Positions 14,183 through 56,118 of a DNA stretch of 64,000 nucleotides are shown piece after piece (position 1 is the stretch's first letter; every line of letters begins with the position of its first letter). Position numbers and translations under genes: made by a program. The stretch lies in contig JAHEIW010000002.1 in NCBI GenBank assembly GCA_024639185.1, positions 2,842-66,841 of the forward strand, in the 5' to 3' direction. This DNA is from Deltaproteobacteria bacterium (lineage in GTDB: Bacteria > Desulfobacterota > Desulfobacteria > Desulfobacterales > JAHEIW01). A model generated the notes under the pieces. It did no database searches. It saw nothing but the letters and a program-made list of their open reading frames with translations, and had not been told where the DNA came from.

Positions 14183-14592
14183 CTGCAATTATAAGCGATT
14201 GAAATGCATATTCTGATGAATATTAGTCACTTATATAAGCATAGGGTAATATCGGCCGGGTGTCAATCAAGAAGAAGACTTAATTTTCAGCTAATTGAAG
14301 AGAAAGAAGCATTATTCGGAGGGTACTGTACAGGTATGTTCGCAATCTCACCAATTTTCAAAGGTAGCCCATTCGTGTGGGTTGTTGGAGAAACATGCAA
14401 ATTTGAGGCTTGAAAATATTTGGGATTACCTAGCGATATATGTAATAAATTGCGGTTATCTCTTCATAGCCGGAACCCATCACTCAACCATTTTGCACAT
14501 TTCATTACGCAGCCTAAAATTTCCAAACAATTTAATTCTTAAAGCAGATATAGTCCGTAGGATCTCATTTTGTAAGATCGTCAGATTAAAAA

Positions 14593-37574: not shown

Positions 37575-38963
37575 TTAATCACCCAGCAATTTTTTTCTGC
37601 GGTAACGGAAGGTGTGATGATTCATTTTCAGTAACCTTGCGGCTTGGCTTTCATTTCCTTTAGCGATTTTAAGGGCCTGTTCAATATAGTCCCTTTCAAA
37701 TGATTGAAGCTGCTCGGACAAATCAATCCCTTCGGGAGGCAAAAGGGCAAGCTCGGCCTCATTTTTGGCTACGGTAAATTGTTGATGCTGATTTTTAAAT
37801 TCAATGCCCAGGTCCTTCAGTTTGAGCTGAGGTCCAGTGCCGATTAGCACTGCTCCTTCCATGAGATTTTTTAACTCCCGAACATTGCCGGTCCAGTTAT
37901 GCGCCAATAACGCATGCTTGGTATCAGGCGATATGTCGCTAAATTCCTTATTAAACTTAGAGCTGAACTCTTGAAGAAAATATTTCGCCAGGGGCACAAT
38001 ATCGTCTGGCCGCTCGTTTAATGAGGGTACCTGGACTTTGACTACCCCCAGTCGGAAATAAAGATCCTTTCGAAATAAACCGTCGTCGATCATCTTATTA
38101 AGGTCTTTGTTGGTGGCGGAAATTAAGCGGGTTTTGATATGTAATTTTTTGGTCCCCCCGACTCTATAAAATTCGCCGAGCTCAAGAAACCTGAGCAGCT
38201 TGGCCTGGGCTTCAAGACTAAGATCGCCAACTTCATCTAAAAATAAAGTACCATTTGCCGACTCCTCGATTAGCCCTTTCTTACCGGATGCTCCGGCACC
38301 GCTGAAGGCTCCTTTTTCATATCCGAAAAGCTCACTTTCGATCAGATCTTTTGGGATAGCCGCACAGTTTACGGTTGCGAAAGGCGCTTGGAAGTTCGGG
38401 CTGTTATAGTGAATAGCGCTGGCAATTAATTCTTTCCCGGTTCCAGTTTCGCCCATGATGAGCACCGGTGTGTCAGGGCTTTTCGCCACCATTTGGACAA
38501 AGTCCATCACATCCTGAATGGCATTACTCTCCCTGATAAAGCATGGGATATTTTCTTTTAGGTGCTTTTCCTGTAAATGTTGAATTTCCTTTTTTAGCCG
38601 GATTGAATCCAGGGCATTGCGAATCGTGACCTCCAATCCGTCCATGTGGAGCGGCTTGATGACATAGTCATAGGCCCCCAGTTTCATGGCCGATATCACG
38701 GTATCGACATCTTCATAAGCCGTTATCATGATGACCAGTATTTCAGGATTTGAGGATTTGATTTGGCGAAGCGCTTCAATCCCATTCATCCCAGGTAAGC
38801 CAACATCAAGCAATACCAAATCGGGGGGATCCTCTTCCAAGGCATTGATGGCAGGTTCCGCCTGTGGAAAAGACCGAATACGATAATCGGCTTCAAGGGT
38901 CAATGTGATGCCGTCACGTATGGTCTGTTCATCGTCTATAACGAATATGGAAAAGGTAATCAT
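37575..38963 (-). CDS. NtrC-family sigma-54-dependent response regulator (REC-AAA+-HTH)
   Basis: REC (VIDDEQT...LVLLDVGLPGMNG...KP), Walker A GETGTGKE, GAFSGA loop (GAFTGA variant), and a C-terminal Fis-type HTH (GNESQAARLLKMNHHTFRYRRKK). Confidence 0.93.
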   Translation of the reverse strand: MITFSIFVIDDEQTIRDGITLTLEADYRIRSFPQAEPAINALEEDPPDLVLLDVGLPGMNGIEALRQIKSSNPEILVIMITAYEDVDTVISAMKLGAYDYVIKPLHMDGLEVTIRNALDSIRLKKEIQHLQEKHLKENIPCFIRESNAIQDVMDFVQMVAKSPDTPVLIMGETGTGKELIASAIHYNSPNFQAPFATVNCAAIPKDLIESELFGYEKGAFSGAGASGKKGLIEESANGTLFLDEVGDLSLEAQAKLLRFLELGEFYRVGGTKKLHIKTRLISATNKDLNKMIDDGLFRKDLYFRLGVVKVQVPSLNERPDDIVPLAKYFLQEFSSKFNKEFSDISPDTKHALLAHNWTGNVRELKNLMEGAVLIGTGPQLKLKDLGIEFKNQHQQFTVAKNEAELALLPPEGIDLSEQLQSFERDYIEQALKIAKGNESQAARLLKMNHHTFRYRRKKLLGD

Positions 38964-38969
38964 AATTCG

Positions 38970-41648
38970 CTAAGCTCCTTTGCGTTTTTTTAATGGAATT
39001 TCGATCCGAAATTCCGCACCCCCTAATTCACTGGCCGACACGGTCATTGATCCACCGTGATCGCTGATAATTCGGTGACACAAACTCAAACCGATACCGG
39101 TTCCCTCGTGTTTGGTAGTAAAGTACGGATCCAGTATTTTATCTCTCATTTCAAGGGGAACACCCGGTCCTGAATCAGAAACTTGAATAATAATTCGGTC
39201 GGCTTCAACGAAAGACGCAACGACAATATTTTTGCCGGTTTCCATAGTTTTCATAGCTTCGGCAGCATTATTTAAAAGGTTTAATACCATCTCTTCAATT
39301 AAGTTTTTATCTGCATATGATTGCGGCAAATTATTTGACAATAATTTATCGATTTTTATGCCGCTTTTGCCCATCGTCACGGCAGTAAGGTTGATCGCAT
39401 CTGTGATGGGTTCATTGATATCGATTAAGGTTATCTTCGGTTCACTGGGTTTGGCGAAATCCATGACTCTTCGAATAACGGATTCAATTTTAATAGATGC
39501 TGATTGAAGTTGTTTCAATATTTGCTCAACTTTTGCTTCAGTTCCATCCCGGTGATGGAGTTTTTTGAGCGTGTTTAGATAGATATTGATTCCCGAAAGA
39601 GGATTTCGGATTTCATGTGCAATACCGGCTGCCACCCGACCCAGAGATGCCATCTTATCCTGGATGGTTAAGAGATGTTCAAGTTCTTTGGCTTTGGTCA
39701 TGTCCATTATATTGACCAGTATCGCATCTTTCCCCTGAAATTCTATCCGGCTGGCCTGGCAATGGACCCATTTCATTTGGCTCCGATTGGCTCTTCCATC
39801 CTGTGGATAAAATCTGAAATCCATAGATTCAATCGGCAGATTCCCCGACCTGATACTTTTATAAAATGCATCTACCTTTGCGATATCGTCCGGGTGGATA
39901 GAGTCCTTGTCTTTAAATTTAATCGGACGCGGTAATGGACCCAGCAGTCTTTCTTGTTCCGGATTCTGGTAGACGATTTGGTCATTTTGAATGATCGATA
40001 TACCCGTTAAGGAATGTTCTACTAATTCTCGAAAGCGTTTTTCGCTTTCAACTATGGCCGTTTGCGCTCGATCGCGTTCTATGATTCGTCCAATTCGTTC
40101 AGCAATCGTATTTATCAAAGCTCTTTCTTCTATTAAAAACGGTCCCTCATCGCTTTCCGGTCGCTCTTCAAGATAATGAGCAGATAGAACACCAACCGTC
40201 TTATCATTGACAATAATGTTTTGTGCAAGCATCCTTTGTGTTTCTTCAAAGTTTTCTGTGCTGAATTCTTGACTGTCTATGATGATTCTACCACATGTGA
40301 TTTCTGGATACTGATAAGCCGGTGGAATGAGCTCAACGATTCCCTGGAGGATCTCCTCTAGTGTAAGTCTGCGTCTTTCAACCAAACGTGAAATCTCAAA
40401 AAGGCAATTTAACTCTTTAATCCGCTCTTCCACCTCATTCATACTTTTCTGTAAATCTTTCTCTACTGATCTGCGTTTCTTTATCTCTTTATCCAATTCA
40501 TCCCTTGAAGCTGTAACAGCCTTTAACCGGTCAGTCATTTGATCGAATGCCCGTCCCAGCTGTCCGATCTCATTCCGTGCATCGGTAGCAATTTTATGGT
40601 CTAAATTGCCTTTACCGATTTCTTCCGCACCAGCTTGTAAAAGTTGAATCGGATCGGATATGGATTTTCCAACGATAAATGCAGCAAACATACTGATTAC
40701 AATAAGAGCAAGGACGAGCACGAGGACAAAATTTCTTAACGTCGTTATGGGTTCAAAAGCTTCAGCGACGTCTATTTTGGCCACCATCCCCCAGTCCAGC
40801 GAAGGAATGTATCGCCAGGCTGCGATGACTTTTTGCCCGCGGTAGTCCACAGATATTCCACTTCCGTTGTTGCCGTTGAGCGCTTTTTGAACAGGTATGG
40901 CTTGCTTTTCACCAAAATCAACCTTTCTCTTTAGAACTGCACTTGGATCATGACGAAGTGGATTTAGAAACAGAGCTTGATTCCCGGCTTTTTTGGCGAT
41001 CAACGTCTCACCGGTTGTTCCCAAACCGGTCGTATTTTGAATGAGTTCGTAAATGGGTGCCATGTCGCTCTCAAAAGCGGCTACGCCAATGAGCTGGCCC
41101 ATATCAGAACGAATCGGAGCTGAGATGATCATGGAGAATTGGCCGGTTTCGATTTTACTGGCAACAATATCTGAAAGTTGGATTCCGGTTTTGCCATCAT
41201 CAAATGATGTCCCCAACAGGTCCGGTTTGATCGTGCCAAGTATGCCCGAAGCTAAAGAGCGATCCAAAACGTAGACGATCCTTCCCGTCGAATTTATCAG
41301 GATAACGTTTCTGAAATCATAAACCGGCTTATATATTCGAATGGCCTGGTCAAGTTCGTCTCTGATGGCTTCATAAACCGGAGTGGAAAAGTCGCCCGAA
41401 AAGTCTGCAAGCATGGCAGCCAATTTTTTTAGTGTTGGGCGCTCTTGTGCAATCTGGATGTGTTTTTTCTGATCGACGAAAAAGTCTTCTATTCTTTTGA
41501 CCTTGAGATCGGCAATGCTTTGCAATTCTTCCATTCGCAGGGATGTCAGAGCTTTCATGGCGTGATAATATCCAAGCAGACCGACAAAACACATTGGTAT
41601 GATCGTGCACGCCAGAAGAATCATGATCATTTTTTTTCGGACGGTCAT
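38970..41648 (-). CDS. Sensor histidine kinase with periplasmic Cache-like domain, HAMP, GAF/PAS, HisKA and HATPase
   Basis: Two TM helices flank a periplasmic domain of about 270 aa. HAMP, H-box AAGIAHEIRNPLSGI and G-boxes DSGPGV / GTGIGLS are present. Confidence 0.9.
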   Translation of the reverse strand: MTVRKKMIMILLACTIIPMCFVGLLGYYHAMKALTSLRMEELQSIADLKVKRIEDFFVDQKKHIQIAQERPTLKKLAAMLADFSGDFSTPVYEAIRDELDQAIRIYKPVYDFRNVILINSTGRIVYVLDRSLASGILGTIKPDLLGTSFDDGKTGIQLSDIVASKIETGQFSMIISAPIRSDMGQLIGVAAFESDMAPIYELIQNTTGLGTTGETLIAKKAGNQALFLNPLRHDPSAVLKRKVDFGEKQAIPVQKALNGNNGSGISVDYRGQKVIAAWRYIPSLDWGMVAKIDVAEAFEPITTLRNFVLVLVLALIVISMFAAFIVGKSISDPIQLLQAGAEEIGKGNLDHKIATDARNEIGQLGRAFDQMTDRLKAVTASRDELDKEIKKRRSVEKDLQKSMNEVEERIKELNCLFEISRLVERRRLTLEEILQGIVELIPPAYQYPEITCGRIIIDSQEFSTENFEETQRMLAQNIIVNDKTVGVLSAHYLEERPESDEGPFLIEERALINTIAERIGRIIERDRAQTAIVESEKRFRELVEHSLTGISIIQNDQIVYQNPEQERLLGPLPRPIKFKDKDSIHPDDIAKVDAFYKSIRSGNLPIESMDFRFYPQDGRANRSQMKWVHCQASRIEFQGKDAILVNIMDMTKAKELEHLLTIQDKMASLGRVAAGIAHEIRNPLSGINIYLNTLKKLHHRDGTEAKVEQILKQLQSASIKIESVIRRVMDFAKPSEPKITLIDINEPITDAINLTAVTMGKSGIKIDKLLSNNLPQSYADKNLIEEMVLNLLNNAAEAMKTMETGKNIVVASFVEADRIIIQVSDSGPGVPLEMRDKILDPYFTTKHEGTGIGLSLCHRIISDHGGSMTVSASELGGAEFRIEIPLKKRKGA

Positions 41649-41742
41649 GTTAACGACTCTTGTATTTTTAAACGCAGATAAAGTTGGGCGATGCCGATTA
41701 AGTTAGCTTTTAAGCTGGAATTGCAGTCTACTATAACAAATA

Positions 41743-41779
41743 ATTTCGAAATTTTGCGAAAAAAATTTCGAAATTTTTC
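41743..41779. promoter_or_regulatory. Tandem palindromic candidate enhancer (UAS) sites AAATTTCGAAATTT x2
   Basis: aatttcgaaatttt (41743-41756) and aaatttcgaaattttt (41764-41779). The CG centres are 22 bp apart and lie 120 and 98 bp upstream of the GG of the sigma-54 promoter at 41867. Confidence 0.5.
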
Positions 41780-41866
41780 TAAATTTAAAATCCCATTAAT
41801 TTAAATTAAAGGCAAAAATTTAAATAACCCTTTAATTTTAAATAACTTTTCATTAGAACTCCGCAC

Positions 41867-41882
41867 TGGCATACTCCATGCT
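41867..41882 (+). promoter_or_regulatory. Sigma-54 promoter upstream of the hdrD-like / hybrid HK / EBP operon
   Basis: Plus-strand sequence TGGCATACTCCATGCT, about 165 nt upstream of the ATG at 42047. Confidence 0.7.
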
Positions 41883-42046
41883 TTGAAATAATCAATGAAA
41901 AATCCGTACCACCTTCACCTCCAAAGCAGCAATTTGTAAGACACAAATAAATTTTTGAAAGGGGTTCTGTACCGCTGTATTTTCAATAATGTGAGCCTGC
42001 CGTACAGTTTCGTTTAACCGATAAAAAACAAACCAAGGAGGCCCAA

Positions 42047-43354
42047 ATGTCTGATAAGGTCGTCAAACTGGGTGGCAAAAAGAAAAGCCGGTTTATGGAC
42101 AAGGTCATGCAGCTTCTGCCGGAAGGCGGCAATCTGAATCTTTGCCTGACCTGCGGGGCCTGTTCGTCCGGATGCCCGGCCACGGGTCTGGATGGTATGG
42201 ATCCGCGTAAATTTTTACGCATGGCCGCTCTGGGAATGGATGCTGAAATTCTCAAATCGGACTGGCCCTGGATGTGCACCCAGTGCCAGCGCTGCATTTA
42301 TGTCTGTCCAATGAAAATCGACATTCCCCAGCTGGTGTACAATGTGCGCGGAACCCGGCCGCGAGAAGAACGGCCAAAGGGGATCTTGGGTTCCTGTGAT
42401 ATGGCCCTGAAAAATGACAGCTGCAGTGCCATGGGCGCATCGCCGGAGGATTTCACCTTCGTGGTCGAAGACGTTCTGGAAGAGTACCAGGAGGCCCAGC
42501 CCGAATTTAAAGACATGCAGGCACCCATTGACAAACAGGGCGCCACCTTCTTTTTAAATCAAAATTCCAGGGAGCCGGTAACCGAACCCGATGAAATGGT
42601 TCCCCTCTGGAAAATTCTGCACCTGGTGAGCGCGGACTGGACCTATGGGAGTAAGGGCTGGGGCGGGGAAAACTACTGCATGTTTCTGGCCGACAATGAC
42701 TCCTGGGAACACATTGTGCGAACCACCGCCAAACAGGCTGACGATCTGGGCTGCAAGATATATCTGAATACCGAGTGAGGGCATGTCACTTTCTCAGTCC
42801 TGGCAGGACTGAAAAAATTCAACATTGACCACAAATTTGAGGTTAAAAATATCTATGAGTACTATGCGCAATGGATCCGCGAAGGCAAACTTCAGGTCAA
42901 TTCCGATTGGAACAAAGATCTAAAAATCAAGTTTACGGTTCAGGATCCCTGCCAGATCGTGCGCAAAAGCTACGGCGATCCCATCGCCGAAGATCTGCGC
43001 TTTGTGGTCAAAACCCTGGTGGGGGAGGAAAACTTCATTGATATGACCCCCAACCGCTCCAACAATTACTGCTGCGGCGGAGGGGGTGGTTTTCTGCAGT
43101 CCGGCTATAAACAACAGCGGTTGGAATTCGGCCGCTTGAAAGACAATCAAATTCAAGCCACCAAAGCCGACTATTGCATCGCGGGTTGCCACAATTGCCA
43201 CGCCCAGATTCACGAGCTCAGCGACCACTATGGTGGGGGCTACGGTGTCATCCATCTGTGGACCCTGATCTGTTTTGCCCTGGGTATCCTCGGTGAAAAT
43301 GAACGAGAATATCTGAACGATGATCTCAAAGAGGTGGCCGTTTATGGCGCTTAG
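42047..43354 (+). CDS. HdrD/GlpC-like Fe-S oxidoreductase (2x[4Fe-4S] ferredoxin plus CCG domains) with an in-frame UGA at 42776-42778; candidate selenoprotein
   Basis: Track ORFs 42047..42778 and 42959..43354 are in the same frame. No stop occurs between them other than this TGA. There is no ATG and no RBS downstream until far inside the second part. N-terminal motifs CLTCGACSSGCP and CTQCQRCIYVCP. C-terminal CCG motif DPC-x39-CCGGGGG...CHNC. Context is ..KIYLNTE-U-GHVTF... Confidence 0.78.
42789..42814 (+). other. Candidate bacterial SECIS hairpin
   Basis: Stem tcagtcct / aggactga (42793-42800 and 42804-42811) with G-rich apical loop GGC (42801-42803). The stem extends by ttt/aaa with a bulged C. 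The loop lies 25 nt after the UGA. Confidence 0.5.
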
Positions 43355-43368
43355 TACAAGAGAAACCC

Positions 43369-44916
43369 ATGAACACACCCACTAAATGGAAAGTCGTCTT
43401 AATCGATGACGAAGAAGACATTCGAGATGTCCTGGCCGTTGCGCTTCGGGATAGCGGGTATGATGTCATTGCGGCAGAAGATGGCGAAACCGGCTTACGG
43501 TTGTGTGAAGAGACATCCCCCCAAATTGTCGTTACCGATATCCGCATGCCGGGGATGGACGGTCTCCAAGTATTAGAGGTTTTGAAAAACAAGACCCCCG
43601 ATATAGAGGTCATTGTGGCCACTGCATTCGGGGAGATGGACGTGGCTATTCAGGCGCTGCAGCTCGATGCTTCGGATTTTATCACCAAGCCCATCAGCGA
43701 CGAAGCTTTGCATCTGGCACTGAAACGCGCCAAAGCCCGCTTTAGCTCGAAAAAGCAGCTTAGAGACTACACCGCTCTTTTGGAGCGCGAGAAGGCGGAG
43801 ACAAGTCAAGAACTTTTTAAAACCCTATCTTTCCAGAAAAATTTAATTGCGCACTCCATCGACGGCATCCTGGGATGTGACGAAAACAAGCGGGTCATCA
43901 TCTATAATAAAAGCATGGAAAAGATGCTGGGTTACGAGAGCAACGAAGTGTTGCACAAAATGACATTTAGCCATTTTTTATCGCCCGGCGAGGAGCTGAA
44001 CTTTATTGCCGAACTGGAAGATGAGCGTTACGGTGGCAAACACAAGCTACAACTTTATGAAACCACCCTGAAGGCAAAATCCGGCCGCAGGATTCCTGTA
44101 CAAGTATCGGCGACCCCCTTATTTGACCATGAAAACGTCAATGGTCTAGTTTGTTTTTTCAGAGATCTGCAGGAAACCCGAAAGCTAGAAAGAGAAATGG
44201 AGGATCAGGCGCGCATCCTGCATCAGGACAAAATGATGTCTTTAGGACGACTGGCTGCCAGTGTGGTTCACGAGATCAACAACCCGTTAGCGGGAATTTT
44301 AAATTATCTGCGGCTGATGCTCCGGATCCTGGATGAGGAGCAGCTGACAGAAGAGCGGGTGGAAAAATTTAAGCATTATTTAAAGCTGGTCGAAAATGAA
44401 ATCAATCGATGCGCACAGATTGTATCCAGCTTGCTCAATTTCTCGCGCGTATCTCCGCCGGCCTTTGGCGAAGTCCGGATTAAAGAGCTCGTCGAACGCT
44501 GTATCATTTTGAGCCAGCACAAGCTGGAACTGAGCAACATCCAGCTGAAATATAGCATCCAAAATGGCATCCCTGCTGTCCGGGGCGACTTCAACCAACT
44601 GCAGCAATGTATCATCAATCTCATATTCAATGCAATCGATGCCATGTCGGAGGGAGGAACGTTGACCCTGCAAGGACACCATGAATCTGCGACAGGAAAA
44701 GTGGTAATAGCCATAAAAGACACCGGTCAGGGTATTGCCCCTGATGCTCTTCCGTATATTTTTGAACCTTTTTTTACGACGAAAAGTCAAGCTTTTGGCG
44801 TAGGACTCGGCTTGTCGACGGTTTACGGCATTATCGAACGACACAACGGCAGTGTTGATGTCGACAGTCAACCTGGGAAAGGTGCCGTGTTTACGCTAAA
44901 AATACCGGTTCTTTGA
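43369..44916 (+). CDS. Hybrid response regulator / histidine kinase (REC-PAS-HisKA-HATPase)
   Basis: REC (VVLIDDEED...VVTDIRMPGMDG...ITKP), a PAS domain, H-box VVHEINNPLAGI, and G-boxes DTGQGI / GVGLGLS. Confidence 0.9.
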   Translation: MNTPTKWKVVLIDDEEDIRDVLAVALRDSGYDVIAAEDGETGLRLCEETSPQIVVTDIRMPGMDGLQVLEVLKNKTPDIEVIVATAFGEMDVAIQALQLDASDFITKPISDEALHLALKRAKARFSSKKQLRDYTALLEREKAETSQELFKTLSFQKNLIAHSIDGILGCDENKRVIIYNKSMEKMLGYESNEVLHKMTFSHFLSPGEELNFIAELEDERYGGKHKLQLYETTLKAKSGRRIPVQVSATPLFDHENVNGLVCFFRDLQETRKLEREMEDQARILHQDKMMSLGRLAASVVHEINNPLAGILNYLRLMLRILDEEQLTEERVEKFKHYLKLVENEINRCAQIVSSLLNFSRVSPPAFGEVRIKELVERCIILSQHKLELSNIQLKYSIQNGIPAVRGDFNQLQQCIINLIFNAIDAMSEGGTLTLQGHHESATGKVVIAIKDTGQGIAPDALPYIFEPFFTTKSQAFGVGLGLSTVYGIIERHNGSVDVDSQPGKGAVFTLKIPVL

Positions 44917-44937
44917 TCCGACCCGCGAGGATCTGAC

Positions 44938-46677
44938 ATGAATCATGCCACAAATCCAAAGAAAACCAGTGTCCGGTCTGATGAATGGCTTGAGATTCTG
45001 GATGAAATAAATGTCGGCGCTTTTACGGTCGACAACAACCGGCGGGTTGCGTCGATGAACCTGAATGCCCAGGCTTTAATCGGAATGAAAGAAAGTGAGG
45101 CCATCGGAAAAGACTGCCGCGAGGTGTTTGTCGGGGTCCCCTGTCTGGCAAGGTGTCCGTTTAGCGGTTCATCAGATTCGGATACCGAAGAGCCGGTTAT
45201 TCAAATCGAGGACGAAAATCAACAACCCCATTTCGTCACCCGCATGGCAACGCCGGTTTATGGACGGAACCAATCGGCGGCCGGTTGTCTGACGATATTG
45301 CAGGACCATTCACCGATTGCCGATCTGATAGACCGCATTCATTATGAGGAGCGCAGTCTGAAAATAATTCTGGACAACCTTGATGTCGGAATTTTCACCG
45401 TCGACCGCAGTGGTCATATCACTTTTTTTAATACCGAGGCAGAAAAGATTTCAGGCTACAATCGTCGCGACGTTTTGGGTCAATCGTGTACGACGCTGTT
45501 TGAAGGCAAGGGCGTCCGGGATTTGTGTTTATTAAAAGAGTCCATCATTGATGGCGAATCACGCAGCAGCCAGCAGGGTAAAATGATGACACGAGACGGC
45601 GTGACCATCCCCATCCGGGCCAACTACATGGCGCTTCGCAACGAGAAAGGCACGATTGTGGGCGGGTTGGCGACGTTTCATGACCTGACCCTGATACGAC
45701 AGTTTAAGCAGGCGATGCGCAATCGCTATACCTTCCATGATATGGTTGGCAAAAGCCCACTGATGCAAAAAATTTTCGGGATGGTCAATATTGTCGCCTC
45801 CACAGATGCCACCATTCTGATCGAAGGCACAACGGGAACCGGCAAAGACCTGCTGGCCAAGGTCATCCATTCAGCCAGTCACAGGGCGAATAAACCATTT
45901 GTCAAAGTGAATTGCGCCGCCATACCCGATAACCTGATCGAATCGGAGATGTTCGGTTATGTCAAAGGCGCGTTTACCGGGGCCGAAAGAGATAAGATCG
46001 GGCGGTTCCAGGAGGCTGAGGGCGGCACCATTCTTTTAGATGAGATTGGTGATCTACCGCTCCCCTTGCAAGCTAAGCTGCTGCGCGTTATCGAAGATAA
46101 GGAATTTTATCGTTTGGGCAGCCGGCATACGATTAAAGTCAATACCCGCATAATTTCGGCCACAAACCGCAATCTCGAAAAGCTGGTAAAAAACCGGCTT
46201 TTCAGAGAAGATCTTTATTACCGGCTGAACGTGTTCCGTATCGAAATACCTACTCTAAGAGAGCGGCAAGACGATCTACCCCTCTTGATCGGTCACATTT
46301 TAAGACGCCTGGTTGCCGCAGCGGGGCAGCGGCCACCGGAAGTATCTGAAACGGTAATGAAAATTCTGCTGAACTACACCTATCCCGGAAACGTCAGAGA
46401 ACTGGAAAATATTTTAGAGCACGCCCTGATCACCTGCCAGCACGATACCCTCGAAGAGCGACATCTTCCCGAATATCTCATAAGCCCCCAAACCGCACGC
46501 CGACCCGGGCTGCGCGAGAAACAACAGCGCCTTCCGATCCCAGACAATCTGGAGTGTGATGATATTCTGGCCGCCCTCAACCAACACAACTGGCACCGCA
46601 TCCGGACCGCCAGGGCTTTGGGAATGGACCGCACCACGCTCTGGCGTAAGATGAAGAAATTCGGCCTCAGTGATTGA
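44938..46677 (+). CDS. Sigma-54-dependent transcriptional activator with two PAS sensor domains and no receiver
   Basis: Walker A GTTGTGKD, exact GAFTGA loop, ESEMFGY, and a C-terminal HTH ([21 protein letters not shown]). The first PAS carries C60/C69/C73 ([16 protein letters not shown]). Confidence 0.92.
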
Positions 46678-46686
46678 GCTTTTTTT
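46665..46686 (+). terminator. Weak terminator-like hairpin plus T7 run at the end of the EBP gene
   Basis: cctca-gtgat-tgagc followed by ttttttt. The stem is only 4-5 bp. Confidence 0.25.
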
Positions 46687-46742
46687 ATATTCTGACATAA
46701 AGCACCGCTGAACCCAGTTAGTGCAGCATATGTTGCAGATTC

Positions 46743-46754
46743 TGTTGTACAACA
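46743..46754. promoter_or_regulatory. Perfect palindrome TGTTGTACAACA, a candidate UAS for the hdr operon promoter
   Basis: 12-bp perfect palindrome. Related sites are TGCAGCATATGTTGCA (46722-46737) and TGTTGTAAATAGTGCAACA (46817-46835). All lie 85-200 bp upstream of the promoter at 46921. Confidence 0.4.
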
Positions 46755-46920
46755 CCGCGTCTTTAACCAAATTCATTATATTTTATATACTTACAGAGAT
46801 TACGGCCCACGCATCGTGTTGTAAATAGTGCAACATCATTGCGAGCCCCCGTCCTCAAATCATGATCACCACTCCGCTAACCCTCTGTAATTAATATCAT
46901 AGCTTTTTATTCCGCTCACC

Positions 46921-46936
46921 TGGCATAGTCTATGCT
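46921..46936 (+). promoter_or_regulatory. Sigma-54 promoter upstream of the REC-hdr operon
   Basis: Plus-strand sequence TGGCATAGTCTATGCT, about 75 nt upstream of the ATG at 47012. Confidence 0.7.
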
Positions 46937-47011
46937 CTTACAGGGGCCAAGACCCTTTACCAGGCGTGCTGAGCTTACCCATCATAGCGTCAGCGTTTCA
47001 GAGGATTTTAA

Positions 47012-47455
47012 ATGTCAAATCCCGTTGAAAGAAAGAAAATTCTTGTCGTTGATGACGAGGCGGATATGCGGATCTTTCTGTGTAATCTGTTGGGTAATTG
47101 CGGATTCCAGCCCATCGGCGCCGCTGATCGCATCGAAGGGATCCAAAAAGCAAAAGAACAAAAGCCGGCCTTGATTATCCTGGATGTAATGATGCCGAAG
47201 GAAAGCGGGATTCTGATGTATCGCCAACTCCGAGAAGACAAGAACCTCAGGAAAGTGCCGGTCATCATGGTATCGACCATCGATAAAAAGATGTTTTCAC
47301 GATACCAGAAATTGCAAAGCAGACCTCAAAAAACGGCCGCCGCCGAACCGGGCGCCTACCTGGAAATGCCCCTGGAAACCGAAGAACTGGTTCGGCTGGT
47401 GCGCAAGATGACGTCAACCACAGCATATGATGCTGCAAGGAAACTTGACAAATAA
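47012..47455 (+). CDS. Single-domain response regulator (atypical: the conserved Lys is replaced)
   Basis: KILVVDDEADMR...ALIILDVMMPKESG...VIMVST, but YLEMPL where receivers have xxKP. Confidence 0.8.
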   Translation: MSNPVERKKILVVDDEADMRIFLCNLLGNCGFQPIGAADRIEGIQKAKEQKPALIILDVMMPKESGILMYRQLREDKNLRKVPVIMVSTIDKKMFSRYQKLQSRPQKTAAAEPGAYLEMPLETEELVRLVRKMTSTTAYDAARKLDK

Positions 47456-47479: not shown

Positions 47480-50400
47480 ATGTCTGTCAGAATAGGATTT
47501 TATATCTGCCACTGTGGAATCAACATCGCTTATAAAGTGCGCGTGGAAGAGGTCGCAGCCTTTGCCCTTAAATTGAAAAACGTGATCGTCGCCCGGGATT
47601 ATAAATTTATGTGCTCGGACCCGGGTCAGGTGATGATTGAAAAAGATATAAAGGAATTGGATTTGAATCGGGTCGTAGTGGCCTCATGTTCGCCGCGCTT
47701 GCACGGGAAAACGTTCATGGGGGTCTGCGAGCGCGCCGGGATTAATCCGTATTTTTTTCAAATGGCCTCGGTACGCGAACAGGTCTCCTGGGTAACGACC
47801 GATGAAAACGAAGCCACCGACAAAGCCAAAAGTCTGGCAGCGGCGGCCATTTATCGCGTCAACTACCATGAAAGCCTCGAAGCCCGTCAAGCCCCTGTAA
47901 ATCCTGATATGCTGGTGATTGGTGGCGGTATCGCCGGAATGCAGGCCGCCCTGGACATCGCCGACTCGGGCCATCAGGTCTATCTGGTGGAAAAGGATAC
48001 CACCATCGGCGGTCACATGCTGCAGTTTGATAAAACCTTCCCCACTCTGGATTGCGCCGCCTGCATTGGAACACCCAAAATGGTCGAGGTAGCGCAAAAT
48101 TCGAATATCAAACTGCTTTCATACAGTGAAGTGACGGATGTTTCCGGATTCATCGGAAATTATACGGTTAGCGTCCGACGCAAGCCCCGCTACGTAAAAG
48201 AGGACCTCTGCACCGGGTGCGGCGAATGTGAAAAGGTCTGTCCGGTGAGCATATCGAGCTCGTGGGATGCCGGGATAGGCACTCGCAAAGCCATTGGCCG
48301 CACGTTTCCGCAAGCCATTCCGATTACCTTTAACATCGAAAAAAAGGACCGGGCACCCTGTGTGGCGGCCTGCCCTGCGGGCACGAACGTGCAGGGGTAC
48401 ATCCAATTAATCGGCCAGGGCAAGTATGCGCAGGCGATCCAACTGATCATGGAGCGCATTCCGTTACCGGGGGTGCTGGGCCGGGTGTGCCCGCATTTCT
48501 GCGAGGCACAATGCCGCCGTGTTGAAATTGATGAGCCGGTAGCCATCCGGGAATTAAAGCGCTTTGTGGCCGATCAGGTGAACCTGGAAATGCTACCACC
48601 GCCGGAAATAAATGAACGTCCGGAAAAAGTGGCCATTGTGGGATCGGGCCCGGCCGGATTGACGGCGGCTTATTACTTGCGCTTGAAAGGATATCAGATA
48701 ACTCTCTTTGAAGCGCTAAAAGAATTGGGCGGCATGCTGCGTGTCGGTATCCCCGATTATCGCTTGCCGCCAGAAATTCTGGCAAAAGAAATCGATCACA
48801 TTCTGCGACTGGGTGTCGAAACCCGCACCGGCGTCCGATTCGGCGACGATTTCAGTATGAAGGATCTTGAACAGGAAGGTTTTTCAGCTGTTTTTCTCGC
48901 AGTGGGTGCCCATCGGTCGACCAAACTCGGCATCAACGCTGAAATGGACGCTGATGGAATTATCGATGCCCTGCAATTTTTAAGAAATATTAATCTTGGC
49001 TCTCGGACATCCCCTGGAAATGATGTGGTGGTTATCGGCGGCGGCAATGTGGCCATCGATGCGGCGCGGTCGGGCAAACGGTCAGGCACACACAAAATGA
49101 CGGTGGTATACCGCCGTTCAAAAGATGAGATGCCGGCCTATGCTGAAGACCTACAGGGCGCCATCGAAGAAGGAATTGACTTTTCATATCTAACGGCGCC
49201 GGTCCGCGTCCGGGTGAATAACGGCAAGGTTGTCGGGTTGGAATGTTTGCGCACCGAACTGGGCGCACCGGATGAAAGCGGCCGGCGCCGACCGGTTCCG
49301 CTGGAAGGATCCGAATTTCTGATCTCATGTGATGCCATCATTTCGGCGATCGGCCAGCGCGTCGATACCTCATGGGCCGATCAGATACCGGTTCTGAAAT
49401 GGTCGCAACGGGGAACGCTCGAAGTGGATCCTGACACCATGCAGACATCTGTGCCCCATGTATTTGCCGCCGGGGACGCCGTCAGCGGCCCGGCCACCGT
49501 CATTGAGGCCGTTGCTGCGGGACATCGGGCGGTCAAGGCCATAGAGCATTACCTGGCCGGCGAGGAAATGGAGGAAGCCCATGTACAAAAGGCCACCGCG
49601 AATCCCGGCACTCAAAATTGGCAGGCAATCCCCGAAAATGTTTCGAAGGCAGATCGCGCTGTGTCACGCCAAATCGTGGCTGCAAAGCGGATAACTTCTT
49701 TTGAAGAAATCGAACAGGGATTCTTAAAGGCTGAAGCCAGACAAGAAGCCCAGCGCTGTCTGAACTGCGGCATCTGTAGCGAATGCATGGAATGCGTCCA
49801 GGTCTGCGAGCCGCAGGCCATTGACCATTCCATGAAAGAAGAAGAAATAACCCTGGAGGTCGGCAGCATCATTATGGCCACCGGATACGACACCATGGAT
49901 CCCACACCTTTAAAACCCTATGGCTACGGTGTATATCCGAATGTTTTCACGGCGCTTGAATTCGAACGCCTGAGCAATGCAACCGGTCCCACCGGTGGAA
50001 AAATTCTGATTCGTGACGAAAACGGCGAATTCACGCGAACCCCGCAAAGTGTCGCTATCCTTCACTGTATCGGCAGCCGCGATGTGAATTACCACGAATA
50101 CTGCTCACGGGTGTGCTGTATGTATGCACTTAAATATACCCATCTTATCAAAGAAAAAGTGGGACATGATACCCAAGTGTATGATTTTTACATTGACATG
50201 CGCTGTTTTGGTGAGGGCTATGAGGAATTTTTCCGCCGCTGCCAGGAAGAAGGAACCATTTTCATACGCGGTAAGGTTGCCGAGATCACAGATAATGCCA
50301 TCCATCCCGGCGAAACGGGAAAACTCATTGCGCTGGGTGAAGACACGTTGCTTGCAAAGAAATTGCGGGTTCCGGTCGATATGGTGATTCTATGCACGGC

Positions 50401-50890
50401 TATGGAGGCCCGCGAGGATGCCGCCGATATGGGCCGCATTTTGGGTGTCAATTTAGGAGCCGATGGATTCTTTCTTGAAGAGCATCCGAAGCTGGGGCCG
50501 CTAAATACCGCAACCGACGGCGTATACCTTTGCGGGTGCTGTCAGAAACCATTGGATATCCCGGATACGGTTTCGCAGGCAAGCGGTGCAGCTGCGAAGG
50601 CCCTCTCGCTAGCTACCCGCGGAACGGTAGATATTTCACCGACAATATCCTGGATCGACCCGGACATTTGCATTGGATGCCAGACCTGCATTGAACTGTG
50701 TCCATACTCGGCGATTGAATTTGACAAGCGACGTGGTGTCTCGGTCGTCAATGAGGCGGTTTGCAAGGGATGCGGTAGCTGTTCGGCACATTGCCCCAGC
50801 GGAGCAGCTCGCAGCCGCCATTTTCAAAGCAGACAGATTTTTGCCGAAATTGATGGAATTTTAGAAACCGTCTCCCGGCTGGGACGGTAA
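47480..50890 (+). CDS. hdrL: HdrL-type large HdrA homologue: HdrA flavoprotein with an inserted GltD/NfnB-like NAD(P)H-binding module
   Basis: HdrA N-terminal domain (FYICHCGINIA...VVASCSPRLH). FAD fold MLVIGGGIAGMQAALDIA. HdrA signature HCIGSRD...YCSRVCCMY. Several CxxCxxCxxxCP ferredoxin motifs. Residues of about 290-700 look like the glutamate-synthase small subunit (GRVCPHFCEAQC; VAIVGSGPAGLTAAYYL; GGMLRVGIPDYRLP). Confidence 0.9.
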   Translation: MSVRIGFYICHCGINIAYKVRVEEVAAFALKLKNVIVARDYKFMCSDPGQVMIEKDIKELDLNRVVVASCSPRLHGKTFMGVCERAGINPYFFQMASVREQVSWVTTDENEATDKAKSLAAAAIYRVNYHESLEARQAPVNPDMLVIGGGIAGMQAALDIADSGHQVYLVEKDTTIGGHMLQFDKTFPTLDCAACIGTPKMVEVAQNSNIKLLSYSEVTDVSGFIGNYTVSVRRKPRYVKEDLCTGCGECEKVCPVSISSSWDAGIGTRKAIGRTFPQAIPITFNIEKKDRAPCVAACPAGTNVQGYIQLIGQGKYAQAIQLIMERIPLPGVLGRVCPHFCEAQCRRVEIDEPVAIRELKRFVADQVNLEMLPPPEINERPEKVAIVGSGPAGLTAAYYLRLKGYQITLFEALKELGGMLRVGIPDYRLPPEILAKEIDHILRLGVETRTGVRFGDDFSMKDLEQEGFSAVFLAVGAHRSTKLGINAEMDADGIIDALQFLRNINLGSRTSPGNDVVVIGGGNVAIDAARSGKRSGTHKMTVVYRRSKDEMPAYAEDLQGAIEEGIDFSYLTAPVRVRVNNGKVVGLECLRTELGAPDESGRRRPVPLEGSEFLISCDAIISAIGQRVDTSWADQIPVLKWSQRGTLEVDPDTMQTSVPHVFAAGDAVSGPATVIEAVAAGHRAVKAIEHYLAGEEMEEAHVQKATANPGTQNWQAIPENVSKADRAVSRQIVAAKRITSFEEIEQGFLKAEARQEAQRCLNCGICSECMECVQVCEPQAIDHSMKEEEITLEVGSIIMATGYDTMDPTPLKPYGYGVYPNVFTALEFERLSNATGPTGGKILIRDENGEFTRTPQSVAILHCIGSRDVNYHEYCSRVCCMYALKYTHLIKEKVGHDTQVYDFYIDMRCFGEGYEEFFRRCQEEGTIFIRGKVAEITDNAIHPGETGKLIALGEDTLLAKKLRVPVDMVILCTAMEAREDAADMGRILGVNLGADGFFLEEHPKLGPLNTATDGVYLCGCCQKPLDIPDTVSQASGAAAKALSLATRGTVDISPTISWIDPDICIGCQTCIELCPYSAIEFDKRRGVSVVNEAVCKGCGSCSAHCPSGAARSRHFQSRQIFAEIDGILETVSRLGR

Positions 50891-51331: not shown

Positions 51332-51444
51332 CTTTGGGTAATGGATATTGGGTATTCGGTATTGGTGGCCTAACACAAAAAGATGCAAACAGCAAACAAC
51401 TCGTACCAAATACCCAGTACCGAAAATCAAAATTGGAGATACCG

Positions 51445-52590
51445 ATGTCGATTACGGGAAAAATCGAGGTGCAAGACAAAGATATTTTAGGAGCTTTGGG
51501 AGCGTTTTTTAAGCGCGTTTTGGAAACAGATGACATCAACGCCATTTTGGTGCCGCAGCATCTTTCAATGAAAAATATGGTTATGCCGACGCTGGTAACA
51601 GATCCCGAACAGCTCAATGGTGTAGATCCCCTAGCACCGGCATTTCCCATGAATGCCGCTAAAATTGTTTCGCGTCTGACCCGTAAACAGATGGGATCTA
51701 AAATTGCGGTGGTGTTGCGCCCCTGCGAAATCCGAGCCTTTGTTGAACTGGTCAAACTCAAGCAAGGTCAAATGGACGAAGTGATGCTCATCGGCATGGA
51801 TTGCCTGGGCGCATTTCAAAACAAAGATTACCTGCAATATGTTGACAGGCACGGGGACAAATCCACCGAGCGCTTCTATCAAGACGTTTTGGATGGGAAG
51901 CAGGCAGACATAGAAGGTGCTACTTTGGCTTCAGCGTGTATGTCTTGCGAAAATCCGGTGCCCACAAATGCAGACATCCTGATCGGTCTATTTGGCGTTG
52001 AGATCGCGGATTATCTGTTGGTACAATCGCAAAGCAAACGCGGAACAAATCTTTTAAATCAGATGCACATGACCGAAATCCCAGAACCAGCCTCACGCCA
52101 GGATGCCATCACCGCCATCGTTGCGCAGCGCATTGCCTGCCGAGATGAAATGTTTGTCAGAACACGCGCAGCTACCGATAGCCTGGAAAAAATGACGGCC
52201 TATCTGGCCAATTGCGTCAATTGTTATAACTGCCGGGTGGCATGCCCGGTGTGTTACTGCAAGGAATGTGTTTTTGTAACCGATGTGTTTAACCATGATC
52301 CGTCTCAATACTTGCGATGGGCCAATCGGAAAGGCGTCATTAAAATGCCAACCGATACGCTCTTTTTCCATCTGACCCGCTTGGCCCATATGAGCACGGC
52401 CTGTGTGGGGTGCGGCCAATGTTCAAATGCCTGTCCAAATGGTATTCCGGTGATGGAGCTCTTTCGCACCATATCACAAAGCACCCAGCGCGCATTTGAA
52501 TATGAGGCCGGAAAAAGCATCCAGCAGGAACCGCCCCTTTCGGTATTTTATGAGGATGAATTTCCAGAGGTGGTTGGCATCAACAGTTAG
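51445..52590 (+). CDS. FrhB/FdhB-like Fe-S flavoprotein (F420-hydrogenase beta-subunit-like N-domain plus 2x[4Fe-4S])
   Basis: IAVVLRPCEIRAFVEL resembles the FrhB_FdhB N-domain. Ferredoxin motifs CVNCYNCRVACP and CVGCGQCSNACP. ATG at 51445 with GGAGA 6 nt upstream. The track start at 51334 lies in a structured spacer. Confidence 0.72.
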   Translation: MSITGKIEVQDKDILGALGAFFKRVLETDDINAILVPQHLSMKNMVMPTLVTDPEQLNGVDPLAPAFPMNAAKIVSRLTRKQMGSKIAVVLRPCEIRAFVELVKLKQGQMDEVMLIGMDCLGAFQNKDYLQYVDRHGDKSTERFYQDVLDGKQADIEGATLASACMSCENPVPTNADILIGLFGVEIADYLLVQSQSKRGTNLLNQMHMTEIPEPASRQDAITAIVAQRIACRDEMFVRTRAATDSLEKMTAYLANCVNCYNCRVACPVCYCKECVFVTDVFNHDPSQYLRWANRKGVIKMPTDTLFFHLTRLAHMSTACVGCGQCSNACPNGIPVMELFRTISQSTQRAFEYEAGKSIQQEPPLSVFYEDEFPEVVGINS

Positions 52591-52628
52591 CAAATTATTT
52601 AATAAACCTATGAAAGCGGGTGTTGCAT

Positions 52629-55600
52629 ATGGCTAGAAAAATCGGCAAAGCGCTGGTCGTCGGTGCTGGTATCGCCGGTATAAGAGCTGCTTTGGATTTA
52701 GCAGAGTCCGGTTATGGCGTCATTCTGATTGATAAGTCCCCGCATATAGGCGGGATCTTAAGCCAGCTCGATTACCAGTTCCCCACCGACCATTGCGGGA
52801 TGTGCAAAATGCTTCCGCTGGTGGACCGGGATGCCAGTTCGCAGTATTGTCTGCGCAAGGGTCTGTTTCATGAAAACATCGACATTACGTTATCCACAGA
52901 GCTTGTTTCCATCAAAGGAGAACCCGGCCAATTTCAGGTGATGCTGAAAGAACATCCGAACTGGGTGACCTCAGATCTTTGCACAGGCTGTGGCGAATGC
53001 GTTGACGCTTGTCCGATTGAGGTTCCGGATGAATTCAATTCCGGCCTGGGAACCCGTAAAGCAATTTATCTGCCGATACCCCATGCCATTCCAAATCCCT
53101 ATGTCATTGATTACACTGTGTGCACCCGCTGCGGTGCATGCGAAGAGATGTGCCCGACAGGCGCCATTAAAATTCCCGAAAAGGCCCGCGGGGACTTCCG
53201 CATTTTAGTTGTGGATGATGAACTGATCGTACGCGATTCATTAAAAGAATGGCTTGCGGAAGAGGGTTTTGCAGTCGATATGGCTGCATCCGGTCAGGAA
53301 GCGATAGAACAATTGTCTCAACAGACCTACCAGCTGATGCTTTTAGACTTAAAAATGCCCGAAATGGATGGTGTTGAGGTCTTGCAAAAAACCATTGATG
53401 AATTTCCCGATCTGGATGTCGTCATGATGACCGCCTACGCAACCGTGGAAACCGCTGTCGAAGCCATGAAAATCGGGGCCCTGGATTATCTGGTAAAGCC
53501 TTTTGATCCGGAAACCCTGATCCCCATGGTCAAACGCTTATATCAAGAGCGGGCTGCCTCTGAAGGTCGCCAGATTGAAGTTGGCGCAGTCGTGTTGTGC
53601 GGGGGCACCGCTTTTTTTGATCCGGCCAGCGGCAAAAATACGTTTGGTTATGGAATATTTCCCAACGTCGTCACCCACCTGGAATTCGAGCGGCTTTTAA
53701 GCGGTACCGGTCCTTATCACGGACAGCTTGTCAGACTGGGCGACGGCCAAGCGCTCCAAAAAATTGCCTGGATCCAATGTGTCGGTTCCAGAGACCTGCA
53801 GCTGGAAGCCGATTACTGTTCCAACATCTGCTGCATGGCAGCGATCAAGCAAGCACTGGTGGCCAAACAAAAGGCCCGCGGAAATTTAGATACAACCATT
53901 TTTTACATGGACATGCGCACCTTTGGAAAATCCTTCGAACGCTACCGGCAGCAGGCCGAGGCAAAACATGGCGTTCGGCTCAAAAGGGCGCGGATTCATA
54001 CGGTGGACCGGCATGCCGCTTGCGGCGATTTGATTCTGCGCGGCGTGGATCTGGCAGGACAATCCAGCGAAGAACGTTTCGACATGGTGGTTCTGACTGT
54101 CGGTCAACGGCCGATCGGTGGCGCAAATGACCTATCCGAATTGGCAGGAATAGAGCTAAATTCACTTGGTTTCGCGCAAACCGAAGCTTTTTCGTTAACG
54201 CGGTCCTCACGAAGCGGAATTGAACTGGGGGGATCATTTACGGGTCTAAAGGATATCAGTGATTCTGTTGTACAAGCGTCTGCCGCCGCTTTAAATGCCT
54301 CACGAATTCTGCATGCCGCCGGCGGCAGTCTGGCCCTAAAGTCCTCGTCATTCATACCATCGACCGATGTGCTGCGAGAAGTCCCCCGGATCCTGGTGAT
54401 CGTTTGTACCTGCGGTGTTCGGCTCCCGGCAGCCGTCGACACCCAAAAAGTCATCGAACAGCTCACGGCTGATCCGCTGGTTGATGGCGTCGATTTTGTC
54501 GAGCAAACCTGTACGGCCGCTGGATGGGAACATCTTGAAAAACGGGTCGCTGAAAGCAAACCAAATCGGATCCTGATCGGATCCTGCCTGCCATATGTCT
54601 ATAAGCGCAAGATTAAAGATCTCGGCCAGCGAATCGGTCTGAATCCGAGCCTCATCGACGTGGTCGATCTTGCATCTGAGTACCAGAAACACGTTTTAGA
54701 AAAAGAGCCCAAGGAGTTTATTACCCAAAATGTAACTTCCAAACTGGAGATGGGCATCGCCAGGCTAAAATGGATTGAACCGTCAGCACCCCCGGACATT
54801 CCGGTCATCCAGCGGGCACTGGTGATCGGTGGCGGCGTTGCCGGTATGACGGCCGCTTTGGCAATCGCCGATCATGGTTTTCAGGTGGATCTGGTGGAAC
54901 AAAATGATCGATTGGGTGGCAACCTCAACTGGTTGGAGCGAACGCTGGATGGGCACCAGCCCACAGAGTTGCTGCAACAAACGCGTACATCCGTAGAAAA
55001 ACATCCTCAAATACAGGTGCATACCCAAACGCGTGTGGTGCGCTCAACAGGCGAAGTAGGCCACTTTCAGACCACCATAACCGATGCGCAAAACACTGAG
55101 CAAACCCTGGATCATGCGGTCACCATATTGGCGACCGGTGGCAGGGAGGCCGCGACCTCCGCTTATGGGTACGGGACAAGCCCGGTCATTGTCACACAGA
55201 AGGAACTGGAAGAAAAACTGTCAAACCAACCATTGGATGCCACCCAATTACATTCAATCGCCATGATCCAGTGTGTGGATTCGCGCGAGGAGCCCCGAAA
55301 TTATTGCAGCCGCGTATGTTGCGCGAATGCTTTAAAGCACGCCCTGCACCTGAAAGAAATAAATCCTGACATTCAAATTTATATTCTCTATCGGGATATG
55401 ATGACCTACGGCTTTGACGAATCCTATTATACCCGGGCCCGCAAGGCCAACGTGATCTTCATCCAATATCAATTCACTGAAAAACCGCAGGTCATGGCTA
55501 ATCAAGAAAGTGTGCGCGTAACCGTCATTGATTCCATTATAAATAGGCCCATACAAATCGAGGCGGATCTTCTGGTGCTGGCCACCGGCATCATTCCCAA

Positions 55601-56054: not shown

Positions 56055-56118
56055 CTAATTCGTTATTGGTTATTTGTTATTCGTCGCAACGGCATCCCGC
56101 TGCAAAAAGGATGTTTTC

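Follow-up and report, generated by a model that had tools for sequence, protein, structure and literature searches.

A putative two-tier sigma-54 cascade in front of an hdr operon of a Desulfobacterales bacterium

A stretch of 64,000 nucleotides from a Deltaproteobacteria bacterium of the Desulfobacterales (NCBI GenBank assembly GCA_024639185.1, contig JAHEIW010000002.1, positions 2,842 to 66,841; the whole stretch is called the window in the following) encodes two sigma-54 activators which may act in series. An NtrC-type response regulator would switch on an operon consisting of hdrD(Sec), a REC-PAS histidine kinase gene and the gene of a second activator with two PAS domains, and this PAS activator would in turn act through a different palindrome on the promoter of the hdr operon that follows. 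Two properties of the locus carry this reading: the operon of the second activator lies downstream of a sigma-54 promoter with tier-1 sites, and a distinct site is present at the second target promoter. We consider the whole cascade, that is a functional serial dependence of the second tier on the first, to be moderately probable. The features of the locus are the following, with genes taken from Pfam matches and the open reading frame (ORF) listing and promoter cores from pattern matches:

37575-38963, minus strand: NtrC-type response regulator with REC, sigma-54 AAA+ and HTH_8 domains (Pfam: REC, Sigma54_activat 2e-63, HTH_8)
38970-41648, minus strand: dCache-HAMP-HisKA-HATPase kinase, putative cognate sensor (Pfam)
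41649-42046: intergenic region, 398 bp
41744-61 and 41766-83, plus strand: predicted tier-1 upstream activator site, dyads TTTCGAAATTTTGCGAAA and TTTCGAAATTTTTCTAAA with centres at -114 and -92, 22 bp apart
41867-41882, plus strand: sigma-54 promoter core TGGCATACTCCATGCT, predicted tier-1 target (pattern match)
42047-43354, plus strand: HdrD-like Fer4+CCG protein with in-frame TGA (Pfam, ORF listing)
43369-44916, plus strand: REC-PAS-HisKA-HATPase kinase (Pfam)
44938-46677, plus strand: PAS(4-Cys)-PAS-AAA+(GAFTGA)-HTH_8 activator without REC domain (Pfam: Sigma54_activat 1e-70, HTH_8 9e-13)
46678-47011: spacer between the activator gene and the REC gene, 334 bp
46722-46754, plus strand: predicted distal tier-2 site cluster TGCAGCA-TA-TGTTGCA-N5-TGTTGTACAACA, at -199 to -167
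46817-46835, plus strand: predicted proximal tier-2 dyad TGTTGTA-AATAG-TGCAACA, centred at -95
46921-46936, plus strand: sigma-54 promoter core TGGCATAGTCTATGCT, predicted tier-2 target (pattern match)
47012-47455, plus strand: stand-alone atypical REC protein, encoded by the first gene of the target operon (Pfam)

According to the proposed mechanism an external ligand would be sensed by the dCache kinase (38970-41648), which would phosphorylate the NtrC-type regulator (37575-38963). The phosphorylated regulator would bind the paired TTTCGAAATTTTKCKAAA dyads near -114 and -92 at at least seven sigma-54 promoters of the surrounding island, and from promoter 41867 hdrD(Sec), the REC-PAS kinase and the PAS-PAS activator would be expressed as one operon. 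The PAS activator would then occupy TGTTGCA-N5-TGCAACA at -95 together with the distal half-sites at promoter 46921. Under a permissive redox state, read by a cluster in its first PAS domain (PAS1), the activator would be released and promoter 46921 would fire, with REC-hdrL-mvhD-frhB-like-(Fer4-REC-hdrA)-hdrC-hdrB as output. The net logic would be that of an AND gate for an external cue and a cytoplasmic redox state.

The pattern TGGCAY-N6-TGCW is found eight times in the window, where 0.85 matches are expected, and none of 100 shuffles reaches eight. The promoters at 41867 and 46921, which had already been proposed in an initial annotation of the window, both belong to these matches, and good ribosome-binding sites follow them before 42047 (GGAGG) and before 47012 (GAGGA), respectively. 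In the ORF listing and the Pfam scans the window holds two sigma-54 activator genes only (37575 and 44938). Both products carry an AAA+ sigma-54 interaction domain and a Fis-type helix-turn-helix, and the GAFTGA loop is visible in the 44938 protein. The NtrC-type regulator gene adjoins the dCache kinase gene, which diverges from promoter 41867. The other structural statements of the initial annotation agree with the sequence as well: the TTCGAA-type sites upstream of 41867 are present as the two dyads listed above, the eighth promoter (46921), described as lacking such sites, is without a TTCGAA-type 18-mer within 220 bp, also with five mismatches allowed, and the elements TGCAGCATATGTTGCA (46722-37), TGTTGTACAACA (46743-54) and TGTTGTAAATAGTGCAACA (46817-35) are all found upstream of it. 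ORFs and Pfam likewise confirm the succession of hdrD(Sec), REC-PAS kinase and PAS-PAS activator, with gaps of 14 bp between hdrD and the kinase gene and 21 bp between the kinase and the activator gene.

The upstream regions of all eight promoters were aligned on the promoter core. A paired 18-bp dyad TTTCGAAATTTTKCKAAA is shared by seven of them (18582, 20052, 21538, 26396, 31902 and 36602 on the minus strand, 41867 on the plus strand), with dyad centres at -112 to -116 and -89 to -93, which are 22-23 bp or two helical turns apart. At up to three mismatches the 18-mer has 15 matches in the window compared to 0.97 expected; as the copies at 41867 served as the consensus reference, the zero mismatches of those copies are circular. 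One further site resembling an upstream activator site at 37444-61 was set aside, because no sigma-54 core lies beside it.

A metagenome scan with the 37575 regulator yielded 26 orthologous loci (62-95% identity) and 37 non-orthologous loci, which were used as controls. A dyad pair at -140 to -80 precedes 15 of 51 sigma-54 promoters in the loci with orthologues of the response regulator (259 kb), compared to 0 of 11 in the non-orthologous loci (400 kb). The dCache kinase gene is located immediately upstream of the regulator gene in the loci L081-L092, L094 and L096, and the paired dyad is also found in the relatives L005, L024, L086, L087, L090 and L094. The PAS activator was followed in a second set of 80 loci from Desulfobacterales metagenome-assembled genomes (MAGs), which encode full-length orthologues with 56-74% identity. 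Here the paired dyad is restricted to L005 and L024, and an orthologue of the dCache kinase gene is adjacent and divergent in L005 and apparently also in L024. The TTTCGAAA dyad is in turn present in loci that have a response regulator orthologue and no PAS activator (L081, L082, L084, L085, L088, L089 and L096). The locus counts in the orthologue, control and PAS-activator sets therefore indicate that the dyad tracks the pair of dCache kinase and response regulator and not the PAS activator. The NtrC-type regulator 37575 is quite probably the protein that binds the tier-1 dyads.

At promoter 46921 the situation is different within the window: as a single site the proximal dyad has one match against 0.32 expected, which is not significant, but 5 of the 21 TGTTGYA half-sites of the window fall into one stretch of 105 bp upstream of 46921. 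Therefore the case for the tier-2 site rests on conservation across genomes. The best relatives of the PAS activator in GTDB representative genomes belong to Desulfobacterales MAGs and have at most 74% identity. The order kinase, activator, spacer, REC, HdrL, MvhD is widely kept across the orthologous loci, and those 42 loci in which the REC gene directly follows the activator gene were used as spacer set. Their spacers contain a sigma-54 core in 30 (strict pattern) to 41 cases (relaxed pattern). TGTTGCA-N4-7-TGCAACA is present with up to two mismatches in 34 of the 42 spacers, the distance between the half-sites being nearly always N5 or N6; with a fixed N5 only 14 loci were matched, whereas N5 or N6 gave 34. 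This corresponds to 2.68 sites per kb in the spacers versus 0.006 per kb in the remaining 511 kb, an enrichment of about 450-fold.

The position of the dyad is conserved, too. Counted from the first base of the core, 26 orthologous dyads have their centres between -94.5 and -99, and at -165 to -200 the relatives show two or three TGTTGCA repeats or TGTTGCGCAACA, which are the counterpart of 46722-37 and 46743-54 in the window. In L030, L033, L036, L044 and L064 a segment of 5-6 kb, often with another activator gene, is inserted after the activator gene, and the displaced REC gene is preceded by a perfect dyad at a distance of about 190 bp. Because the dyad moves with that gene, it is a property of the REC-hdr promoter, and its distance to the PAS activator gene never exceeds about 6 kb. 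The "different palindrome" of the initial annotation can thus be defined as TGTTGCA-N5/6-TGCAACA, a conserved upstream activator site kept at a fixed position of -95 from the REC-hdr promoter. According to a statement from PMC4641369 that is quoted in PMC8359166, activator genes usually adjoin their target promoters. We consider it very likely that the PAS activator 44938 is the binder of the TGTTGCA dyad.

In the region from the proximal dyad to the sigma-54 core, at 46870-46900 or about -50 to -35, there is also a conserved box CTGTAATCAATAT, which reads CTGTAATTAATAT in the window and has its counterpart at this position in L002-L027. It may be a DNA-bending site of the IHF type, like those used at OrpR promoters.

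The connection of the kinase and activator genes to a tier-1 promoter is seen in several relatives. In L086 and L087 a divergent dyad-bearing promoter is directly followed by the genes of the REC-PAS kinase and the PAS activator, with no hdrD between. L090 has the dyad-bearing promoter upstream of hdrD(Sec)-kinase-activator-REC in the same order as the window, in L094 at least hdrD(Sec) is located behind such a promoter, and in L005 hdrD(Sec) is followed by one extra co-directional ORF and then by the kinase and activator genes. The initial interpretation, in which the PAS activator gene is controlled by the first system and its product then acts at the hdr promoter via its own site, thus holds in the parts that can be examined by sequence, with a dyad-bearing promoter before kinase and activator in L086, L087, L090 and L005 and with a distinct, conserved tier-2 site. 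In about 60 of the 80 loci with a PAS activator orthologue, the activator gene directly follows the kinase gene. Between 41600 and 47500 terminator-like matches (8 versus 8.1) and sigma-70-like matches (8 versus 7.9) do not exceed the shuffle level. The TATAAAT box of the relatives is absent from 42000-43400, including the 3' end of hdrD, and the region 42700-43369 contains one weak sigma-70-like match at 42837. In L087 the sigma-54 promoter is the only promoter within 190 nt of the kinase start. Due to the short gaps, the lack of an excess of terminator-like or sigma-70-like matches and the missing TATAAAT box, transcription from 41867 through all three genes is the simplest reading, and co-transcription of the hdrD, kinase and activator genes appears fairly likely.

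The signal of the second tier was guessed in the initial annotation to be redox or metal related because of the Cys-containing PAS domain, and this guess gains support from the orthologues. All 74 aligned orthologues share four invariant cysteines in PAS1 (C60, C69, C73 and C117); the first three are spaced C-X8-C-X3-C, and an acidic residue stands at +2 (E62 in the window protein). OrpR of Desulfovibrio vulgaris, a PAS-AAA+-HTH sigma-54 activator, holds a redox-sensitive [4Fe-4S] cluster by C52, C61 and C65, has a conserved D/E at position 54, and its PAS domain acts negatively on activation (PMC8359166). Most likely the four invariant cysteines of PAS1 hold a redox-sensitive Fe-S cluster, as in OrpR. 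A PAS1 profile search in 5.8 billion proteins returned only 46 short orthologue fragments and gave no link to OrpR.

Several observations weigh against the serial cascade or its redox input. In most of the 80 orthologous loci the kinase-activator pair is preceded by a sigma-70-like element (TTGACA-N17-TATATA or (T)GTTGC-N17-TATAAATAA) and not by a sigma-54 promoter, and L086 keeps such an element in tandem, between the sigma-54 promoter and the kinase gene. Therefore a basal, tier-1-independent synthesis of the activator seems to be the ancestral state. A weak internal promoter may exist in the window, too, and since the activator gene is not followed by a strong terminator, transcription from 41867 may read through into the hdr operon. 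A second TTCGAA cluster near the kinase gene of L024 was rejected as a further case of the connection: it serves a divergent minus-strand promoter and not the kinase gene. The likeness of PAS1 to OrpR, finally, is one of motif spacing only.

An alternative is a parallel instead of a serial arrangement, in which kinase and activator would be made constitutively from an unrecognised internal promoter, 41867 would effectively control only hdrD(Sec), and the hdr operon would depend on the PAS signal alone. We regard this as rather unlikely. The sigma-70-like promoters of most relatives, the two promoter types in tandem in L086 and a gap of 170 bp between hdrD and the kinase gene in L090 would fit such an arrangement; in the window, however, the same gap has just 14 bp, TATAAAT is not found in 42000-43400, the weak match at 42837 is the single one in 42700-43369, and sigma-70-like matches across the whole region stay at the chance level (8 versus 7.9), while L087 has the sigma-54 promoter alone within 190 nt of the kinase start. 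For the serial cascade it follows from the sigma-70-like promoters in most relatives that the tier-1 connection is a lineage-specific overlay on an older self-standing module. Tier 1 may boost the synthesis of the activator and not be strictly required for it, and its role in some genomes is probably confined to raising expression.

That the sites have been assigned to the wrong proteins, either because another regulator encoded elsewhere binds the TGTTGCA dyad or because the two activators are swapped, is improbable. A third activator gene with 38-44% identity is often located nearby in relatives (among others L002, L004, L008, L017 and L030). However, 34 of 42 loci combine the TGTTGCA dyad with the PAS activator, and nearly all of these are devoid of the dCache kinase/response regulator pair, the TTTCGAAA dyad occurs with regulator orthologues where the PAS activator is missing, and the window itself holds two activator genes only. 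There is even less reason to see a transcription terminator or a chance feature in the palindromes after the activator gene, which we consider very improbable: the distal elements of the orthologues are direct TGTTGCA repeats and not hairpins, in spacers of 246-765 bp it is the promoter and not the stop codon from which the proximal dyad keeps a constant distance, and chance does not account for the roughly 450-fold enrichment, although 46722-46737 was picked up in the terminator scan (6-bp stem with GATTCTGTTG behind it) and the lone dyad is not significant in the window by itself. With direct repeats in the orthologues and a dyad in register with the promoter, the terminator reading of 46722-37 was rejected.

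In L002, L007, L017, L021 and L086 the -35 region of the sigma-70-like promoter of the kinase-activator pair, (G)TGTTGC, equals a half-site of the activator dyad and could permit autoregulation by the activator; this element is absent from the window. Autoregulation of promoter 41867 by the PAS activator was rejected, as no TGTTGCA dyad is found near 41867 and the nearest half-site (43949) lies inside the kinase gene.

The remaining genes of the target operon and rpoN, which is also encoded in the window, are the following:

47480-50890, plus strand: HdrL-type fusion of a GltD/NfnB-like NAD(P)H module and HdrA (Pfam, NCBIfam scan; HdrL as defined in PMC2702500)
50909-51331, plus strand: MvhD (FlpD) (Pfam)
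51334-52590, plus strand: FrhB/FdhB-like Fe-S protein (Pfam)
52620-56054, plus strand: Fer4-REC-HdrA fusion (Pfam)
56074-56691, plus strand: HdrC-like protein (Fer4; ORF listing)
56688-57563, plus strand: HdrB-like protein (CCG; ORF listing), with an overlap of 4 bp with the HdrC-like gene
2131-3567, minus strand: rpoN (Pfam: Sigma54_AID, CBD and DBD domains)

Two proteins of the target operon contain receiver domains. The 52620-56054 protein is an HdrA-like flavoprotein of 1144 amino acids (aa), in which the REC domain (residues 195-304) follows an N-terminal pair of Fer4 domains. This REC domain is canonical with a DD pair, the phospho-acceptor Asp in LLDLKMP and the conserved T and K. The Fer4-REC N-terminus is encoded after the FrhB-like gene in at least 12 orthologous loci with 55-76% identity, and a literature search on HdrA receiver-domain fusions found no paper. 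The 47012 REC protein has an intact DD pair and Asp (LIILDVMMP), but the conserved Lys is apparently replaced (YLEMPL), and of the 111 positions of the Pfam model only 1-81 are matched. Its gene is found at the same position in about 45 loci. The H-box His of the co-encoded kinase (43369-44916) is present as well (SVVHEINNP). Since the activator has no REC domain, phosphotransfer to it from this kinase is improbable, and the REC proteins of the target operon are the likely partners of the kinase. It is a tentative and rather doubtful extension of this view that the conserved module controls an electron-bifurcating Hdr-type complex at two levels, by transcription and by phosphorylation of the enzyme, in which case the kinase would phosphorylate both the REC domain inside the HdrA-like flavoprotein and the orphan REC protein. 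If true, this would mean phospho-gating of an enzyme of flavin-based electron bifurcation.

The in-frame TGA of hdrD (42776-42778) was read as selenocysteine; a hairpin CAGUCCUGGCAGGACUG resembling a selenocysteine insertion sequence follows at 42794-42812, and Pfam assigns Fer4 before and CCG after the TGA. TGA, hairpin and the frame after the TGA (…NTE-U-GHVTFSVLAGLKKF…) are kept in L005, L090, L094, L002 and L022, which makes six genomes including the window. Desulfobacterium autotrophicum also possesses a selenocysteine-containing HdrD (PMC2702500). In L002 (14936-15664) and L022 (7731-8459) the hdrD(Sec) orthologue (82-89% identity) is located inside the hdr operon after the FrhB-like gene, a position which in the window is occupied by Fer4-REC-hdrA-hdrCB. 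The location of hdrD(Sec) behind the tier-1 promoter in the window therefore appears to be a rearrangement of the same functional module.

The leader of hdrD (41883-42046 in the window) contains a conserved motif AATGAAAAA(A/T)CCGTACCA about 15 nt past the tier-1 core, which recurs in the leaders of L005, L086, L087 and L090 and is thus kept even in L086 and L087, which lack hdrD. The motif has no Rfam match, and the whole window has none at the gathering threshold, so no known riboswitch is present in the 154-nt hdrD leader.

The seven dyad-bearing promoters belong to a predicted regulon island of 25 kb that also encodes a Mrp/NUBPL ATPase, an MFS transporter, a REC protein, a DksA-type zinc finger protein together with a glycosyltransferase, a 470-aa protein without Pfam match and a prismane/CODH-family protein; a radical-SAM protein is listed for the regulon, too. 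Parts of the island are kept beside the regulator orthologues in L086, L087 and L088. Three ORFs of the window, all on the minus strand, have no Pfam match: 11921-14188 (755 aa), 30047-31459 (470 aa) and 33602-34297 (231 aa). The latter two are located within the island, and their orthologues lie beside regulator orthologues, with 85% identity in L102 for the 470-aa protein and 48-70% in L086-L088 for the 231-aa protein.

Marine Desulfobacterales abound in Hdr-like flavoprotein complexes (HdrL, HdrA, MvhD), which play a central role in their energy metabolism. A literature search on sigma-54 control of hdr genes gave nothing relevant, and no description of the regulation of Hdr-like complexes was found among the papers searched. 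For these complexes the locus supplies a regulatory model, in which an external cue and the cytoplasmic redox state would both be needed, two DNA motifs for mapping regulons in MAGs and, beyond OrpR, a candidate for a second family of sigma-54 activators with an Fe-S PAS domain. No new principle is involved; the locus is of value for annotation and for its connection to Hdr physiology.

The gene content of the target operon resembles loci of D. autotrophicum HRM2, which comprise an HdrL fusion followed by mvhD, an FdhB/FrhB-like gene and a selenocysteine HdrD (PMC2702500); in contrast to the window, neither sigma-54 control nor activator sites nor a REC-HdrA fusion are described there. The second activator shares with OrpR (DVU2106) the one-component PAS-AAA+-HTH architecture, the location beside its target sigma-54 promoters, and the spacing of the cysteines with the acidic residue at +2 (C52/C61/C65 and D/E in OrpR, C60/C69/C73 and E62 in the window protein). 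However, it possesses one PAS domain more and, with C117, a fourth invariant Cys, its loop reads GAFTGA instead of GAFTDA (PMC4641369), and its predicted site is TGTTGCA-N5/6-TGCAACA instead of GGGCGYRTTTTGCGCCC. Moreover, its targets would be hdr and not orp genes, and its own gene is located behind another sigma-54 promoter.

The flagellar hierarchy of FleQ/FlrA and FleSR/FlrBC is similar: its first activator acts on a sigma-54 promoter behind which a kinase and a second activator are encoded in one operon. The second activator of the flagellar system is a response regulator that serves the kinase encoded with it, whereas that of the window is without REC domain. PMC4641369 mentions an FlrA site ahead of flrBC.

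The closest parallel in design is the NtrBC-nifLA-NifA-nif cascade of Klebsiella (PMC8381380). In both systems a response regulator-type sigma-54 activator turns on, or in the window is predicted to turn on, the sigma-54 promoter of an operon with a PAS/kinase-like sensor and a REC-less second activator, which uses another upstream site to drive structural operons under a second (redox) signal. NifA recognizes TGT-N10-ACA, whereas the site of the window is of the type TGT-N13-ACA (TGTTGCA-N5-TGCAACA). The sensor domains are PAS(4-Cys)-PAS instead of GAF, the co-encoded kinase is a canonical REC-PAS-HisKA protein instead of the anti-activator NifL, and the targets are Hdr-like redox enzymes. 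By the NCBIfam cut-offs the proteins of the window are not orthologues of NifA, NtrC or AtoC: none of ten proteins tested from the window reached an equivalog cut-off, with scores of 335 for nifA (cut-off 528.85) in the 44938 protein and of 383 for ntrC (558.6) and 394 for AtoC (714) in the 37575 protein. The circuit design is a textbook one; new are the two motifs, the assignment of the regulon and the link to Hdr-type complexes.

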